From an uncultured Actinomycetota bacterium (GTDB lineage: Bacteria; Actinomycetota; Actinomycetes; JAFAQI01), in assembly GCA_963770565.1 (NCBI GenBank), contig CAVYQE010000001.1:1120001-1184000 (forward strand): a DNA stretch of 64,000 nucleotides, given 5' to 3'. The translations under genes and the position numbers were made by a program. Positions 34,800 through 39,127 of this stretch are shown piece by piece. Below the pieces are notes generated by a model. It ran no database searches, was not told the origin of the DNA, and was given only the letters and a program-made list of their open reading frames with translations. Within the stretch, counting starts at the first letter, position 1. The number at the start of each line of letters is the position of its first letter.

Positions 34800-35603
34800 T
34801 TGAGGGAGAAACCGGTGGGTGAGTATCCGACCTCGTTGGGCGTCTCCGATCCGACGACGATCCGCCTGCTCAACCATGACCTCGCGAGCGAGGTGATGGG
34901 CAACGTCGGGTTCGGCGAGCTGACCTTCTGGCTGATCGCACGCCGACGGCCGACCCCGCAACAGACCCGGGTGTTCGAGGCGGTGCTGGCGGCGTTGGCA
35001 GACCACGGCTTCACCCCGACCGCGATTGCGGCTCGGCTCACCTACCTCAGTGCACCGGACGCGTTGCAGGGCGCCCTTGCCGCGGGGTTGCTCGGTGGCG
35101 GTTCGCGGTTCCTCGGCGTGACCGAGGACACCGGGCGATTCCTCGCCGCCGCTTTGGCCGGAGTTGATGGTGCGTTGCCGAGCGACGATGCAGGTTGGGA
35201 CGAGCTGGCGCGACGCGCGCTGGTCGAGGCCAAGGAGTCCGGACATCACATCCCGGGACTCGGTCATCCGGTGCACAAGGAGATCGACCCGCGCACTCCG
35301 CGGCTCATCGAGATCGCGCACGAGGAATCGACGTACGGGCCTCATCTCGCGTTGTTCGAGGCGATCGGTCGGGTGCACCCCGCCGTGCTCGGACGGCCGC
35401 TGTCGATGAACGGTGCGGGCGTGTGCGGGGCGGCACTCGCCGACCTCGGCCTCCCGGTCGACCTGCTTCGCGGTGTGGCGTTGATCGCGCGCGCCGCGGG
35501 CTTGGTCGGCCAACTCGCCGAGGAACGCGAGCATCCCGCGGCGATGCAGATGTACATGGAGATCGACCACAGTGCTGTCGAGGTCCCGATCGAGCAGTCG
35601 TAA
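34800..35603 (+). CDS. Citryl-CoA lyase / citrate synthase-like protein
   Basis: ADHG, PGLGHPVHK..DPR, ARAAGLVG. Confidence 0.85.
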   Translation: MREKPVGEYPTSLGVSDPTTIRLLNHDLASEVMGNVGFGELTFWLIARRRPTPQQTRVFEAVLAALADHGFTPTAIAARLTYLSAPDALQGALAAGLLGGGSRFLGVTEDTGRFLAAALAGVDGALPSDDAGWDELARRALVEAKESGHHIPGLGHPVHKEIDPRTPRLIEIAHEESTYGPHLALFEAIGRVHPAVLGRPLSMNGAGVCGAALADLGLPVDLLRGVALIARAAGLVGQLAEEREHPAAMQMYMEIDHSAVEVPIEQS

Positions 35604-35678
35604 CCCGACGCGCCCGGACGCGAACGGCCGCGGGCTGACCGACAGGCATGCGGCGCAGTGGCGGGGGAGGATCTAACG

Positions 35679-35963
35679 ATGAGTGAAGCGTGGGCGGCAG
35701 TGGTGGTGGACGATGACCGCGTTCGAGTCACGAGGTGGACCTTCTCCGGCGGCGCCACCACGGGTGAGCACCGGCACGAGTTCGACTACGTCGTTGTGCC
35801 GATAACCGGCGGCTCGTTCACGGTTACGGCTGCCGACGGGTCGGTTCGCGAGATGGTGCAGACGGCCGGAGTCGCGTACCTCGGTAGGGCCGGCACTGAG
35901 CACGAAGTTGCCAACGCCGCGTCGGTGGAGACGGTCTTCGTCGAGATCGAACTGAAGAGTTAG
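35679..35963 (+). CDS. Cupin domain protein
   Basis: HRHEFDYVVVP, GTEHEV. Confidence 0.85.
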   Translation: MSEAWAAVVVDDDRVRVTRWTFSGGATTGEHRHEFDYVVVPITGGSFTVTAADGSVREMVQTAGVAYLGRAGTEHEVANAASVETVFVEIELKS

Positions 35964-36021
35964 CGACGGTCAACAGATAAATGCCGGACGAATTCGCGGC
36001 ACTTCGAGGATCATCGTTGCA

Positions 36022-37209
36022 GTGACACGGACCAAGCGGGGCCCACGCCACGAGTCGAAGCGACTCATCTCGTGGGCATCGATCATCGAGCCGAACACAC
36101 TCGAGCAGGCGCGGACCGCGTCCCAGATGCCGTTCATCTACCCGCACCTCGCCTTGATGCCCGACGCCCATCTCGGCAAGGGGGCGACTGTCGGCTCGGT
36201 GATTCCGACCCTCGGCGCGATCATCCCGGCGGCCGTCGGGGTCGACATCGGCTGCGGCATGATTGCCGTGCGCACCCAGTTCGAGCGGGCAGACTTCGGC
36301 GGCCGGTCGCTCGCCGAGCTTCGCGAGTCGATCGAGCGCGCGATTCCGCTTTCCGCCGGCAAGTACAACTCGGCGCTGACCGAGACCGCGACCGCTCGAT
36401 GCGACGACGACTTGGCGACGATGGACGGTGCGGAGACTGCGCAGCGCCTCGCCCCCAACTGGCGCCTTCAGCTCGGCACGCTCGGGTCGGGCAATCACTT
36501 CATCGAGGTGACCGTCGATGAGAACGACGCGATCTGGCTGTTCCTCCACTCCGGGTCGCGCGGGGTGGGCAACAAGATGGCGCAGCATCACATCCAGCGC
36601 GCGCAGCAGCTGTGCAAGCAGTGGTGGATCCAGCTGCCTGATCCCGACCTGGCCTACCTGGTCGAGGGCACCGAGGACTTCTGGGCCTACATCCGCGACC
36701 TGCGGTGGGCGCAGCATTTCGCGCTGCTCAATCGCGAGGAGATGATGGACCGCGTTGTCGGGTGCGTGACCCAGTGGATCGGTACGCCGGTGGTCGAGCA
36801 GGAGCGGATCAACTGCCACCACAACTTCACGCAGCAGGAGGAGCACTTCGGCAAGCAGGTCTGGCTCTCGCGCAAGGGCGCGATCGAGGCCACGGTCAGC
36901 AAGCCGGGCCTGATCCCCGGATCGATGGGGACGGCGTCGTACGTCGTGGTCGGCAAGGGCAACGCGCTGTCGCTCAACTCCTCGCCGCACGGCGCGGGGC
37001 GCAACTACTCCCGCTCGGCGGCCCGCAAGGCGTTCACCGCGGAGCAGCTTCGCGAGGCGATGGACGGCATCGAGTATCGCGACTCGGACGCGTTCATCGA
37101 CGAGATCCCGCAGGCGTACAAGGACATCGATGAGGTCATGGCCGATGCCGCCGACCTGGTCGAGGTCCGGCACGTGCTGCGCCAGATCGTCAACGTCAAG
37201 GGCGACTGA
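36022..37209 (+). CDS. rtcB: RNA 2',3'-cyclic phosphate/3'-P to 5'-OH ligase RtcB
   Basis: MPDAH, GVDIGCG, GSGNHF, HSGSRG, HHN, RKGA, PGSMG, SPHGAGR. Confidence 0.95.
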   Translation: MTRTKRGPRHESKRLISWASIIEPNTLEQARTASQMPFIYPHLALMPDAHLGKGATVGSVIPTLGAIIPAAVGVDIGCGMIAVRTQFERADFGGRSLAELRESIERAIPLSAGKYNSALTETATARCDDDLATMDGAETAQRLAPNWRLQLGTLGSGNHFIEVTVDENDAIWLFLHSGSRGVGNKMAQHHIQRAQQLCKQWWIQLPDPDLAYLVEGTEDFWAYIRDLRWAQHFALLNREEMMDRVVGCVTQWIGTPVVEQERINCHHNFTQQEEHFGKQVWLSRKGAIEATVSKPGLIPGSMGTASYVVVGKGNALSLNSSPHGAGRNYSRSAARKAFTAEQLREAMDGIEYRDSDAFIDEIPQAYKDIDEVMADAADLVEVRHVLRQIVNVKGD

Positions 37210-37235
37210 TTCGGCGGATTCACCCGGTAAATGCA

Positions 37236-37264
37236 TTGACGCACAACGCCTTTGGCCTCACTCT
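37236..37264 (+). promoter_or_regulatory. Putative sigma70-type promoter of tRNA array
   Basis: TTGACG-N17-CACTCT. Confidence 0.5.
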
Positions 37265-37414
37265 CGACCACGTGCCTGAAACCAGAAGCAATGAATGCGG
37301 TCGCCGACGGCAACCGCATGTGGTGCCGGCGCACCGCGCGTTCGTCGCGCGATCTGACGAGAAGTCGACTCGACTTCGTTAGCTCGCGCAGCGGCGTGTG
37401 ATGCGCCGGCGCGA

Positions 37415-37487
37415 GCGGTGGTCGTCCAACCGGCCAGGATTCCCGGTTCCAACCCGGGCGATGAGGGTTCGAACCCTTCCCACCGTG
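37415..37487 (+). tRNA. tRNA-Trp(CCA)
   Basis: Acceptor GCGGTGG/CCACCGT, loop TT-CCA-AC, T-loop TTCGAAC, G73. Confidence 0.88.
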
Positions 37488-37493
37488 CGGTCG

Positions 37494-37543
37494 CGTGCCC
37501 GAAAGCGGGCGCGGGTCTAGTGAACCTTGAGAACTCCACAGTG
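37494..37543 (+). promoter_or_regulatory. rrn-like boxB hairpin + boxA antitermination element
   Basis: Hairpin CGTGCCCG-AAAG-CGGGCGCG followed by TGAACCTTGAGAACTCCACAGTG. Confidence 0.65.
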
Positions 37544-37588
37544 GTGCCAACGAAAGACGATGCGTCGCCGGTGCGCCGGCGGCGCCTA

Positions 37589-37659
37589 CTGGACGTGGTG
37601 TAGCGGGAGCACGCGTGGTTCGGGTCTACGCGGTGGAGGTTCGACTCCTCCCGTCTGGA
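37589..37659 (+). tRNA. tRNA-Pro(CGG)
   Basis: C1:G72, A73, loop TT-CGG-GT, T-arm GGAGG-TTCGACT-CCTCC. Confidence 0.85.
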
Positions 37660-37671
37660 CGTTTTCGCACA

Positions 37672-37742
37672 GTGGACGTGGTGTAGGGGCAACATGCCTG
37701 GCTTCCACCCAGGCGTCGTGGGTTCGATCCCCACCGTCCGCA
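37672..37742 (+). tRNA. tRNA-Gly(TCC), atypical A73
   Basis: Acceptor GTGGACG/CGTCCGC, loop CT-TCC-AC. Confidence 0.85.
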
Positions 37743-37765
37743 CGGTGCAGCGATGCTGCACTTAG

Positions 37766-37839
37766 GCCGCTCTAGCCCAATTGGTAGAGGTCCGCGGCTC
37801 AGACCCGCGACGGTGAGGGTTCGACTCCCTCGGGCGGCA
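37766..37839 (+). tRNA. tRNA-Leu(CAG) with short variable loop
   Basis: Acceptor GCCGCTC/GGGCGGC, loop CT-CAG-AC, 5-nt variable region, A73. Confidence 0.85.
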
Positions 37840-37860
37840 CTGCATCGCAGGATGCGCAAT

Positions 37861-37931
37861 TCCGGGATGGTCCAACGGAAGGACGCGGGGCTCTGAACCC
37901 CGAGATCGAGGTTCGAGTCCTTGCCCCGGAG
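37861..37931 (+). tRNA. tRNA-Gln(CTG)
   Basis: U1:A72, G73, loop CT-CTG-AA; A7-C66 mismatch. Confidence 0.88.
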
Positions 37932-37941
37932 CTCAGTTCAG

Positions 37942-38014
37942 ACCGCGTGAGCATGTCGGGTCATGCACCGGACTCTTACTCCGGGGAACACGGGTTCAAG
38001 TCCCTGACGCGGTA
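37942..38014 (+). tRNA. tRNA-Lys(CTT), atypical
   Basis: Acceptor ACCGCGT/ACGCGGT, loop CT-CTT-AC; G at position 8 and bulged T-stem. Confidence 0.75.
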
Positions 38015-38020
38015 CGACGA

Positions 38021-38091
38021 TCCGATGTCGCTCAACGGGAGAGCGCCTGATTGTTACTCAGGAGATCGGGGTTCGAGTCCCTGCATCGGAG
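38021..38091 (+). tRNA. tRNA-Asn(GTT)
   Basis: Acceptor TCCGATG/CATCGGA, G73, loop TT-GTT-AC. Confidence 0.9.
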
Positions 38092-38102
38092 CTGTCAATC
38101 CA

Positions 38103-38174
38103 ACCTCCGTGGCTCAACGGATACAGCACCGGCCTACGAAGCCGGGGACGCAGGTTCGACTCCTGCCGGGGGTA
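38103..38174 (+). tRNA. tRNA-Arg(ACG)
   Basis: Acceptor ACCTCCG/CGGGGGT, D-loop GGATA (A20), loop CT-ACG-AA. Confidence 0.9.
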
Positions 38175-38175
38175 C

Positions 38176-38250
38176 GGTGGCTGTCGTCCAACGGCAGGGC
38201 GCCGGGTCGTGATCCCGGTGACGTCGGTTCGACTCCGACCAGTCACCCCA
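38176..38250 (+). tRNA. tRNA-His(GTG) with C33
   Basis: G-1:C73, encoded CCA, loop TC-GTG-AT. Confidence 0.88.
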
Positions 38251-38255
38251 ACCAA

Positions 38256-38321
38256 CGCTGGCGCGGGCGCCGACGAGGTCTCATGAGCCGGGTTCGCGTG
38301 GTTCGACTCCACGGCCAGCGA
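38256..38321 (+). ncRNA. D-armless tRNA-like RNA with CAT anticodon-like loop
   Basis: Perfect acceptor CGCTGGC/GCCAGCG + A, perfect T-arm CGTGG-TTCGACT-CCACG, loop CT-CAT-GA on a 3-bp stem, no D-arm. Confidence 0.65.
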
Positions 38322-38332
38322 CGCACGGTCAA

Positions 38333-38405
38333 GTCTCTGTAGCTCAGCGGAAAGAGCGCCGCCTTCCGAAGGCGGGTGTCGCAGGTTCGAGTCCTGCCGG
38401 GGACA
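38333..38405 (+). tRNA. tRNA-Arg(CCG)
   Basis: Acceptor GTCTCTG/CGGGGAC, loop TT-CCG-AA. Confidence 0.9.
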
Positions 38406-38428
38406 CGGGCCCCCGCGGCGCGGGCGGC

Positions 38429-39127
38429 TTACGGGTCGATCGCCGATGACACCAACGTCGTGGCCTGTTCATGGTGCTGCTCCGGCTTCGGTGTCGGTCG
38501 TGGCCCGACCGCGGCCGCCAGGAGCGAAGCGTTCGGGACAGAGAGCGGCCGCCCTTCGGTGATCAGCGTCACGTAGGTCATCCCGATGCCGGCAACAGTG
38601 CCTTCGATCGGGCCGCCGAGCGATCCGCTGCGGATCTGAATCGCGTCCCCGACCCGAAACGGCCGGGCCAGCAGGAGGACGACGCCGGCGAAGATGTTGC
38701 CGAGCGACTGTTGTGCGGCGATTCCGACGATCACCCCGGTGATTGCGCCGCCCAGCAGCAGGTTTCTGATCGGTACGTCGAAAATGCTGAGCGTCGTGAC
38801 CAGCACGATGAGGTAGCCGAAGACGGCGACCAGCCAGCGCATCGCACCTGCATGGCTCGGTCCGATCCGGCTGCCGATGACAAGCGAGGCCTGACCCGCG
38901 ATTGCCCGAACCGCGATTAGGGCGCTGATCACGAACGTCAACCCGCCGAGGCCGGCGATCAGCTGTTGACGTGACGAACCATGGACGTTGCCGAGCGCAC
39001 CACAGGCAACCAGCGCGAGCACTGCAACAGTCACCATGCAGGTGGCAAGACGCAGGTGTGGGCGCATTTCAGCGGGAGATCGGGGCAACACGAACCGGCC
39101 GCGCGCGCCGCGGAAGGTCAATCGCAC
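38429..39127 (-). CDS. MscS family mechanosensitive channel (short form)
   Basis: GAITGVIVGIAAQQSLGNIFAG...PFRVGD...VPN; start uncertain. Confidence 0.85.
   Translation of the reverse strand: MRLTFRGARGRFVLPRSPAEMRPHLRLATCMVTVAVLALVACGALGNVHGSSRQQLIAGLGGLTFVISALIAVRAIAGQASLVIGSRIGPSHAGAMRWLVAVFGYLIVLVTTLSIFDVPIRNLLLGGAITGVIVGIAAQQSLGNIFAGVVLLLARPFRVGDAIQIRSGSLGGPIEGTVAGIGMTYVTLITEGRPLSVPNASLLAAAVGPRPTPKPEQHHEQATTLVSSAIDP

Follow-up and report, generated by a model that had tools for sequence, protein, structure and literature searches.

A chromosomal array of redundant tRNA genes with altered anticodon loops in an uncultured Actinomycetota bacterium

The closest described counterparts of the locus analyzed here, an array of ten transfer RNA (tRNA) genes in a 64,000-nucleotide stretch of DNA from an uncultured Actinomycetota bacterium (GenBank assembly GCA_963770565.1, contig CAVYQE010000001.1, positions 1,120,001 to 1,184,000, forward strand; the whole stretch is hereafter called the window), are the L-array of cyanobacteria and the tRNA gene clusters of mycobacteriophages. 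The L-array of Anabaena (PCC 7120) adjoins rtcB, with which it is co-regulated, 23 of its 26 tRNAs are charged (Santamaria-Gomez et al. 2021, PMC8421152), and it is induced by translational stress (PMC8421152). For phages of cluster C1, an escape from tRNases through loop mutations at the cleavage sites of their tRNAs has been proposed (van den Berg et al. 2023, PMC10264068), and an anti-defence function has been considered for the tRNA arrays of Mycobacterium (Yano et al. 2026, PMC12803027). In the array of the window, the tRNAs with G36 or A36 lack, with the single exception of tRNA-Pro, the G36-G37 and A36-A37-A38 motifs of the modification enzymes TrmD and MiaA, and these departures from the housekeeping loops of the same genome recur in related arrays. 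Mycobacterium genomes and plasmids reportedly carry tRNA array units as well, as described by Morgado and Vicente in 2018.

Like the Anabaena L-array, the present one is dense, runs on one strand, duplicates the housekeeping set, is patchily distributed and has rtcB nearby; unlike it, it belongs to another phylum, has 10 genes (16-19 in sister arrays), and is accompanied alternately by RtcB or by a Ro60-like protein. With the C1 phage clusters it shares loops that differ from those of the host at positions 37 and 38 (PMC10264068), but it is chromosomal and has no phage genes in its flanks. The likeness was closest in phage ScoobyDoobyDoo, in which, as in the array family, only Pro keeps G37 among the tRNAs with G36 and positions 37-38 read AT in His, GC in Phe, and AA in both Arg-ACG and Arg-CCG. 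Trp, however, has A38 in that phage versus C38 in the array, and array and phage tRNAs are only 62-81% identical. The Mycobacterium units are also accessory arrays in Actinomycetota, but they are larger (19-20 amino acids) and reside on plasmids or phages, and the one examined, on the mycobacterial plasmid pCBMA213_1, turned out to have mostly canonical loops (G37 after G36 in 5/5, A37-A38 after A36 in 4/4). The underlying idea has already been published for phage tRNAs and L-arrays, and the present result extends that hypothesis by comparative sequence analysis. Some features appear to be the array's own, namely, the motif rule, a variable position 38, C33 before G34, a short tRNA-Leu, a Met-like element, and the alternation of RtcB and Ro60-like genes. 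The consulted text of the Anabaena study describes no loss of G36-G37 or A36-A37-A38, and the terms "position 37" and "A37" are absent from it (PMC8421152). A literature search that left subscription journals and supplementary tables outside its scope found no description of a class-by-class loss of the TrmD and MiaA motifs in cellular arrays.

The studied genome (G000; 4.43 Mb, 68% G+C, 11 contigs, 94.9% complete) contains the window as G000:C1:1120001-1184000. ARAGORN placed the ten genes at positions 37415-38406, within 992 bases of the plus strand, head to tail and separated by spacers of 1-100 bases, in the order Trp CCA, Pro CGG, Gly TCC, Leu CAG, Gln CTG, Lys CTT, Asn GTT, Arg ACG, His GTG, and Arg CCG. 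All ten scored above the Rfam tRNA gathering threshold (39.4-65.5 bits versus 29). Infernal matched tRNAs at 57 places in the genome, ten of them those of the array; of the 47 others, the 46 that agreed with ARAGORN calls served as the housekeeping set, a short Leu(TAG) and two Gln(TTG) genes located on small contigs among them, while one partial match was excluded. The array is a redundant set, all 10 of its anticodons being present also in stand-alone genes elsewhere in the genome. Recent duplication of the housekeeping genes can be ruled out, since the identity between array tRNAs and their housekeeping isoacceptors is no higher than 57-84%.

We then compared the loops (positions 32-38, in the ARAGORN registers) of the array and housekeeping tRNAs. 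None of the 10 array tRNAs has the 7-base loop of its own housekeeping isoacceptor. Among tRNAs with G36, G37 is found in 1/6 of the array (Pro) versus 12/12 of the housekeeping genes (Fisher p = 0.0007), and among those with A36 or U36 the pair A37-A38 is found in 0/3 versus 22/22 (9/9 and 13/13, respectively; p = 0.0004). C38 occurs in 5/10 array tRNAs versus 2/46 housekeeping ones (p = 0.001). C33, seen in 1/10 versus 0/46 (U33 in all), does not differ significantly by itself (p = 0.18). Most identity elements are kept: the discriminator base matches that of the housekeeping counterpart in 8/10 array tRNAs (Gly and Arg-ACG differ), and the array tRNA-His retains both its encoded G-1 and C73.

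Related arrays were found in four further genomes, G003 (same genus), G006 (another genus), and G129 and G355 (two further families), which makes three families in all. The array of G003 is 93-96% identical and lacks Pro and Gly, that of G006 is 77-84% identical and has 16 tRNAs in the same order, and those of G129 and G355 comprise 19 tRNAs and 7 tRNAs plus a decayed Trp, respectively, so that gene counts across the lineages run 19, 16, 10, 8, and 7. In addition, metagenome contigs were searched with a pattern taken from the T arm of Leu, which gave 11 loci; read with ARAGORN and compared with the window, they comprise G006-type and G003-type copies, six distant arrays (L128, L129, L130, L133, L135, and L137), and two small clusters (L127 and L134). 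Wherever a lineage has the gene, A37 was present: in Leu-CAG (5/5), Gln-CTG (4/4), Arg-ACG (5/5), His (4/4), and Arg-CCG (5/5). Pro has G37 in 4/4 lineages. C38 is invariant in Trp (4/4), Gly (3/3), Phe (as G37-C38, 2/2), Tyr (2/2), and Asp (2/2), and Trp has it also in the distant arrays L128 and L129. The housekeeping loops of G129 are like those of G000: among the 33 tRNAs recovered, U33 is present in 33/33, G37 after G36 in 5/5, and A37-A38 after A36 or U36 in 17/17; likewise, the housekeeping Arg(CCG) of relatives has G37 in 16/16 loci (18 were scanned, and two that proved to be Arg(CCT), one of them from an unpublished genome, were not counted). A first-pass annotation, made from the letters of the DNA alone, had quoted eight of the array loops, which are correct letter for letter, as are their coordinates, the count of five loops with C38 (Trp, Gly, Leu, Lys, and Asn), and the statement that Pro, with TT-CGG-GT, keeps G37. 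It would have been refuted by housekeeping tRNAs of the lineage that share these loops, a condition that does not hold, since the housekeeping loops differ in both G000 and G129. Its description of Arg-ACG as canonical was mistaken for this host, as the housekeeping Arg(ACG) reads CT-ACG-GA in G000 and also in G129; A37 in Arg-ACG is canonical by the standards of Escherichia coli only.

C33 was found in His (3/4 lineages), Asp (2/2), Tyr (2/2), and Phe (1/2). In the core family it replaces the near-universal U33 only before G34, in 4 of 6 G34 groups versus 0 of 14 others (p = 0.003). C33 in the distant arrays precedes G34 or U34, never C34. When all loops were pooled, the core family had A37-A38 after A36 in 1/9, G37 after G36 in 4/27 (all Pro), and A37-A38 after U36 in 6/15, and the distant arrays had 9/23, 7/20, and 21/21, respectively, these being counts of related, not independent, sequences.

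TrmD requires G36-G37 (PMC5372744), A36-A37-A38 is necessary for MiaA (PMC5699536), and bacterial TsaBD, which makes N6-threonylcarbamoyladenosine (t6A), has a "strict requirement for 36-UAA-38" (PMC13276492, 2026). Both trmD and miaA are present in G000. The first-pass annotation had counted four independent determinants as lost, those of TrmD, MiaA, t6A, and Tgt, of which two proved robust. The loss of the TrmD motif is wider than it had claimed, the motif being missing from the Leu, Gln, His, and both Arg tRNAs of all lineages that carry these genes, and retained by Pro (4/4). The MiaA motif is consistently lost from Trp through C38, in 4/4 core lineages and two distant arrays, and the loss extends to Phe and Tyr in the sister arrays. 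The t6A claim holds in part: given the 36-UAA-38 requirement, C38 should block t6A in Lys and Asn of G000 and G003, but the loss is not general, as G006 has A37-A38 in both and the six distant arrays keep U36-A37-A38 in 21/21. The Tgt argument became moot, for no TGT-family gene was found in G000 or in any of G001, G003, G006, G129, and G355 (0/5, 80-100% complete), in a search whose controls matched in 14/14 reference genomes. With no Tgt gene found in these six genomes, evasion of a host Tgt cannot explain C33, and this candidate explanation was dropped.

Some of the same positions are cut by known nucleases. Mycobacterial VapC11 cuts tRNA-Leu(CAG) at G37/U38 and U38/G39 and also targets tRNA-Gln(CTG), and VapC37 cuts tRNA-Trp at A36/A37/A38 (PMC5175351). 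The housekeeping loops of G000 carry the same bases as these sites, which were mapped in mycobacteria, not in this organism, and the array alters exactly those bases, positions 37-38 changing from GT to AC in Leu-CAG, from GT to AA in Gln-CTG, and from AA to AC in Trp. The genome has five open reading frames (ORFs) with a PIN domain, which are putative nucleases. One of them (G000:C2:766780-767148) has the housekeeping gene for tRNA-Leu(CAG) (C2:767290-767375) at a distance of about 140 bases, which may be a coincidence.

Despite these changes, the array is not decaying, as the first-pass annotation had also held. We compared 15 orthologous tRNA groups of the five lineages; as these lineages are few and related, the counts serve as a description, not as independent tests. 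No change was seen in 262 of the 308 stem pairs, while 20 have changed on one side and still pair, 20 have compensatory changes on both sides, and 6 are broken in some lineage; that 40 of the 46 variable pairs still pair, and that all ten tRNAs score above the gathering threshold, argues against a decaying pseudogene cluster. The least variable columns are those of the anticodon (2/45), position 37 (1/15), and the discriminator base (1/15); the variable loop (24/72) and the D loop (34/115) vary more, and position 38 is the most variable (9/15). Position 38 is more variable than the other unpaired columns taken together (87/338; p = 0.007).

The array follows rtcB, 205 bases separating the end of this gene from the first tRNA gene, Trp (Table 1). 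G003 has rtcB at the same place (93% DNA identity) and the same rtcB-array arrangement, and of the genomes of the genus only the two with the array gave an RtcB match, the other three being 96, 84, and 55% complete. At E <= 1e-20, RtcB was not found in G001, G002, G004, G006, and G129. In G006 and G129, a Ro60-like gene with TROVE and von Willebrand factor A (vWA) domains directly follows the array; no TROVE match was found in G000. The leader of the array is conserved with it in G003, G006, G129, and G355 although the upstream genes differ. The array probably has its own promoter, one that a scan of positions 35600-38700 with the sigma-70 consensus did not find. The same interval has three terminator-like sites versus 1.2 expected, none of them at the end of the array. 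Four public sequencing runs, available as contigs, were compared with the window; the only RNA run among them contained one 160-base contig, which falls inside rtcB and leaves the tRNAs uncovered, and this is no evidence either way. Other neighbours of the array are cupin, citrate-synthase-like, AAA ATPase, MscS-like, major facilitator superfamily (MFS), and ANTAR genes. In the sister genomes, lexA directly precedes the array of G129, and a Schlafen-type helicase/GIY-YIG gene lies 5 kb from that of G006.

Table 1. Features of the array locus and of two sister loci. Coordinates are those of the window unless a locus is named; loops are written as positions 32-33, anticodon, positions 37-38; hk, housekeeping counterpart in G000.
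Feature	Coordinates	Strand	Remarks
rtcB, RNA 3'-phosphate ligase gene (395 amino acids)	36022..37209	+	Pfam RtcB PF01139, 400 bits, E 1.9e-119
Array leader, non-coding	37229..37414	+	about 190 bases; TTGACG -35-like hexamer; covarying hairpins; aligns with leaders of G003, G006, G129, G355
tRNA-Trp(CCA)	37415..37488	+	TT-CCA-AC (C38); hk CT-CCA-AA; 50.3 bits; C38 in 4/4 core lineages
Conserved 25-base block in 100-base Trp-Pro spacer	37525..37549	+	near-invariant in G000, G006, G129; visible in G355
tRNA-Pro(CGG)	37589..37660	+	TT-CGG-GT; sole G36 array tRNA with G37; 48.2 bits; G37 in 4/4 lineages
tRNA-Gly(TCC)	37672..37743	+	CT-TCC-AC; hk CT-TCC-AA; A73 versus hk U73; 58.8 bits; C38 in 3/3 lineages
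tRNA-Leu(CAG)	37766..37840	+	CT-CAG-AC; 75 nucleotides, without long variable arm; hk TT-CAG-GT, 86 nucleotides; 49.9 bits; A37 in 5/5, C38 in 4/5 lineages
tRNA-Gln(CTG)	37861..37932	+	CT-CTG-AA; hk TT-CTG-GT; 56.3 bits; same loop in 4/4 lineages
tRNA-Lys(CTT)	37942..38015	+	CT-CTT-AC; hk CT-CTT-AA; T stem with 2 mismatches; 39.4 bits (array minimum); C38 only in G000 and G003, AA in G006, G129, G355
tRNA-Asn(GTT)	38021..38092	+	TT-GTT-AC; hk CT-GTT-AA; 65.5 bits; 37-38 AC in G000 and G003, AA in G006, GA in G129 and G355
tRNA-Arg(ACG)	38103..38175	+	CT-ACG-AA; hk CT-ACG-GA; 61.1 bits; A37 in 5/5 lineages
tRNA-His(GTG)	38176..38250	+	encoded G-1 (38176) and CCA end; TC-GTG-AT (C33, A37); hk TT-GTG-GT; 51.9 bits; A37 in 4/4, C33 in 3/4 lineages
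Met-like (CAT) tRNA-shaped element	38256..38322	+	reduced D arm; in all five lineages; weakened anticodon stem in G000 and G003
tRNA-Arg(CCG)	38333..38406	+	TT-CCG-AA; hk CT-CCG-GA; 64.1 bits; A37 in 5/5 array lineages
TROVE/vWA (Ro60-like) gene beside sister array	L021:5779-7410	-	
TROVE/vWA (Ro60-like) gene beside sister array	L044:10547-12253	+	

The reading we favour, to which we would give about an even chance of being right, is that of a spare tRNA operon whose loops were changed to evade anticodon-loop nucleases, with independence of modification as a side benefit. The array would be an accessory operon of the L-array kind, equipped with a conserved leader of its own and kept functional by selection. 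Its tRNAs, duplicates of the housekeeping isoacceptors, would carry remodelled positions 37 and 38 (in some G34 tRNAs also 33), with the loss of G36-G37 and A36-A37-A38, motifs that are at once TrmD or MiaA sites and the mycobacterial VapC cut sites in tRNA-Leu(CAG), tRNA-Gln(CTG), and tRNA-Trp. Expressed and charged, as we infer, they would most likely serve as back-up decoding tRNAs under stress that damages tRNA, for example, through toxin or defence nucleases. They would resist site-specific cleavage of the anticodon loop, and the loss of the modification motifs would be a by-product or an extra benefit, while RtcB (here) or the Ro60-like TROVE/vWA protein (in the sister lineages) would take care of housekeeping tRNAs that were damaged. 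The fast turnover at position 38 is consistent with an arms race. If this is true, cellular genomes, and not phages alone, keep spare tRNAs that survive tRNA-targeting toxins or work without the modification at position 37, and accessory tRNA arrays belong to the conflict and repair toolkit.

Several observations weigh against this reading. The cut sites come from mycobacteria and the five PIN-domain ORFs are only putative tRNases. Part of the loop changes are specific to a lineage, C38 of Lys and Asn being confined to G000 and G003 and C33 of His being absent from G006. Compared with the columns of the variable loop alone, position 38 is only marginally more variable (p = 0.08), and its high variability fits relaxed constraint as well as an arms race. 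The array of G000 is a short form, with 10 genes versus 16 in G006 and 19 in G129, and single genes are eroding: in Lys of G000 (39.4 bits) and G003 the T stem contains two mismatches, the Met-like element of G000 has degenerated, and Trp has decayed in G355. Finally, none of 80 loci around the closest relatives of RtcB (66-77% identity, in various Actinomycetota) holds an array and 9 hold one or two stray tRNAs, so a general link of RtcB with such arrays is ruled out and the link seen here is local.

An RNA-repair operon of Salmonella, rsr-yrlBA-rtcBA, was reportedly described by Hughes et al. in 2020. The array loci resemble it in having RtcB- or Ro60-type proteins beside genes for tRNA-shaped RNAs and, presumably, in responding to tRNA damage. 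Unlike in that operon, RtcB and the Ro60-like protein occur in separate lineages, the RNAs are full decoding-type tRNAs, and the vicinity of the array yielded neither RtcR nor RtcA nor a Y RNA. For RtcR and RtcA this applies to the neighbours of the array only, no genome-wide search having been made; for Y RNA and other RNA families, scans of the array with its spacers and of the sister loci gave only tRNA matches and matches at chance level.

A more elaborate version of the favoured reading, which we put forward only tentatively, would see in the array a set of chromosomal "hardened" tRNAs, with plain A37 wherever the codon-anticodon pair allows it, a conserved C38 that removes A36-A37-A38, and an arms race at position 38 elsewhere and at U33 before G34. 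Together with RtcB or the Ro60-like protein, these tRNAs would form a portable translation-rescue cassette independent of TrmD and MiaA.

It is also conceivable, if rather unlikely, that selection directly disfavoured reliance on TrmD and MiaA, and in this lineage also on the t6A enzymes, and that nuclease evasion was secondary or absent; the tRNAs would then be portable and usable at once when made in a burst, under a shortage of S-adenosylmethionine or dimethylallyl diphosphate, or after transfer to a host that has other enzymes. The changes indeed track the enzyme motifs by anticodon class, with A37 after G36 except in Pro and C38 (G37-C38 in Phe) after A36. The 1-methylguanosine at position 37 (m1G37) matters most in tRNA-Pro. 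Also in keeping with this explanation, C34 is present in 6/10 anticodons of the G000 array, which need no wobble modification, the tRNA-Ile(TAT) of two distant arrays would need no lysidine, and the array family is scattered over three families of the class. The trmD and miaA genes are in the genome and the motif requirements of their products and of the t6A enzyme are documented (PMC5372744, PMC5699536, PMC13276492). Independence, however, is not general, since, among tRNAs with U36, 21/21 in the distant arrays and 6/15 in the core family keep the t6A motif. Moreover, Pro, with its G37, remains dependent on TrmD, Arg-ACG still needs editing of A34 to inosine, and the plasmid arrays of Mycolicibacterium and Pseudarthrobacter have mostly canonical loops, while a fixed "design" leaves the lineage-specific changes at position 38 unexplained. 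As to the alternatives offered by the first-pass annotation, modification-independent and/or nuclease-evading tRNAs, the rebuilt loops and the conservation of the array bear out its premise, but the data do not separate the two causes. The class rule itself (A37 following G36 outside Pro, C38 following A36, rapid change at position 38, and C33 only before G34) would provide simple, testable mutations for the roles of m1G37 and of N6-isopentenyladenosine at position 37.

Less probable still is an explanation without present selection on the loops, according to which the array descends from a mobile, phage-like stock of tRNAs, is little used and slowly erodes, so that its loops record ancestry and drift. 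The low identity to the housekeeping isoacceptors (57-84%), the same loop rule in a mycobacteriophage, the shrinkage of gene content among lineages (19, 16, 10, 8, and 7) with decayed members, the variability at position 38, the most variable site, and the rare, patchy occurrence all agree with such a history. Erosion, on the other hand, does not predict that 40 of 46 variable stem pairs still pair, 20 of them by compensatory change, that hardly any variation affects the anticodons, the discriminator bases, and position 37, or that the leader is conserved. A phage origin also finds no counterpart in the flanks of the arrays examined, where the genes are cellular and none is of phage type. Viral contigs gave zero matches with three exact array-specific patterns, and 50,697 phage records and 72,556 plasmid records gave no close match to the array, only similarity to single tRNAs. 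A phage-encoded array is ruled out here by the cellular flanks together with the absence of a close match among phage records and viral contigs.

Very unlikely, finally, is a non-translational role, as a nuclease soak, a repair signal or a supply for tRNA-dependent biosynthesis, for although Ro60 partners are normally tRNA-like Y RNAs and the array includes a non-canonical Met-like element, a decoy should keep the nuclease target sites and exactly those differ, the array retains the anticodons, 8/10 discriminator bases, the G-1 of His, and the elbow sequences, the 10-19 different specificities suit decoding better than a single biosynthetic use, and no Y RNA family had a match in the array, in its spacers, or at the sister loci. 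Sponge and non-canonical roles were raised in the Anabaena study (PMC8421152).

Among relatives the occurrence of the array is patchy. Matches were found in 3 of 36 genomes of the family and in 6 of 401 of the class (one of the six, G206, with a single Gln match only), and among 400 other genomes of the phylum there was one match to a single tRNA, the genomes tallied being samples and many of them incomplete. Three unpublished genomes (G051, G060, and G043) may be among those without a match, and no positive claim depends on them. A natural deletion form affects window positions 37604-37764, where 159 bases are replaced by 17 and Pro and Gly are gone; it was found in G003, in one soil run, and at L132 and L136 among the metagenome loci. 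In G355, a gene at L045:277-349 (minus strand) combines an Asn-type tRNA body with a CTT (Lys) anticodon and G37, an apparent anticodon switch. The distant arrays L128 and L130 have a tRNA-Ile(TAT), rare in bacteria, which would read AUA without lysidine.

The Met-like element, about 67 nucleotides long, lies between His or Tyr and Arg(CCG) in all five lineages. ARAGORN calls it a 69-nucleotide tRNA-Met in G129, and neither ARAGORN nor Infernal calls it in G000; in G000 and G003 it has two mismatches in the anticodon stem and G at position 37. The tRNA-Leu of the array is one of several short tRNA-Leu genes (74-79 nucleotides, without a long variable arm) with a Leu-type D arm and A73, the others being a stand-alone gene at G000:C1:1052493-1052566 and genes in loci L128, L130, L135, and L137. 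The metagenome arrays have short Leu genes with TAA, GAG, TAG, CAA, and CAG anticodons. The stand-alone gene, outside the window, is the only Leu(TAG) found in the 95%-complete genome, and the 75-nucleotide, arm-less tRNA-Leu of the array raises the question of its recognition by leucyl-tRNA synthetase. Two contigs of about 30 kb hold the only tRNA-Gln(TTG) of the genome (G000:C3:2029-2100 and C4:3017-3087), whose body is nearer to the array-type Gln than to the housekeeping Gln(CTG).

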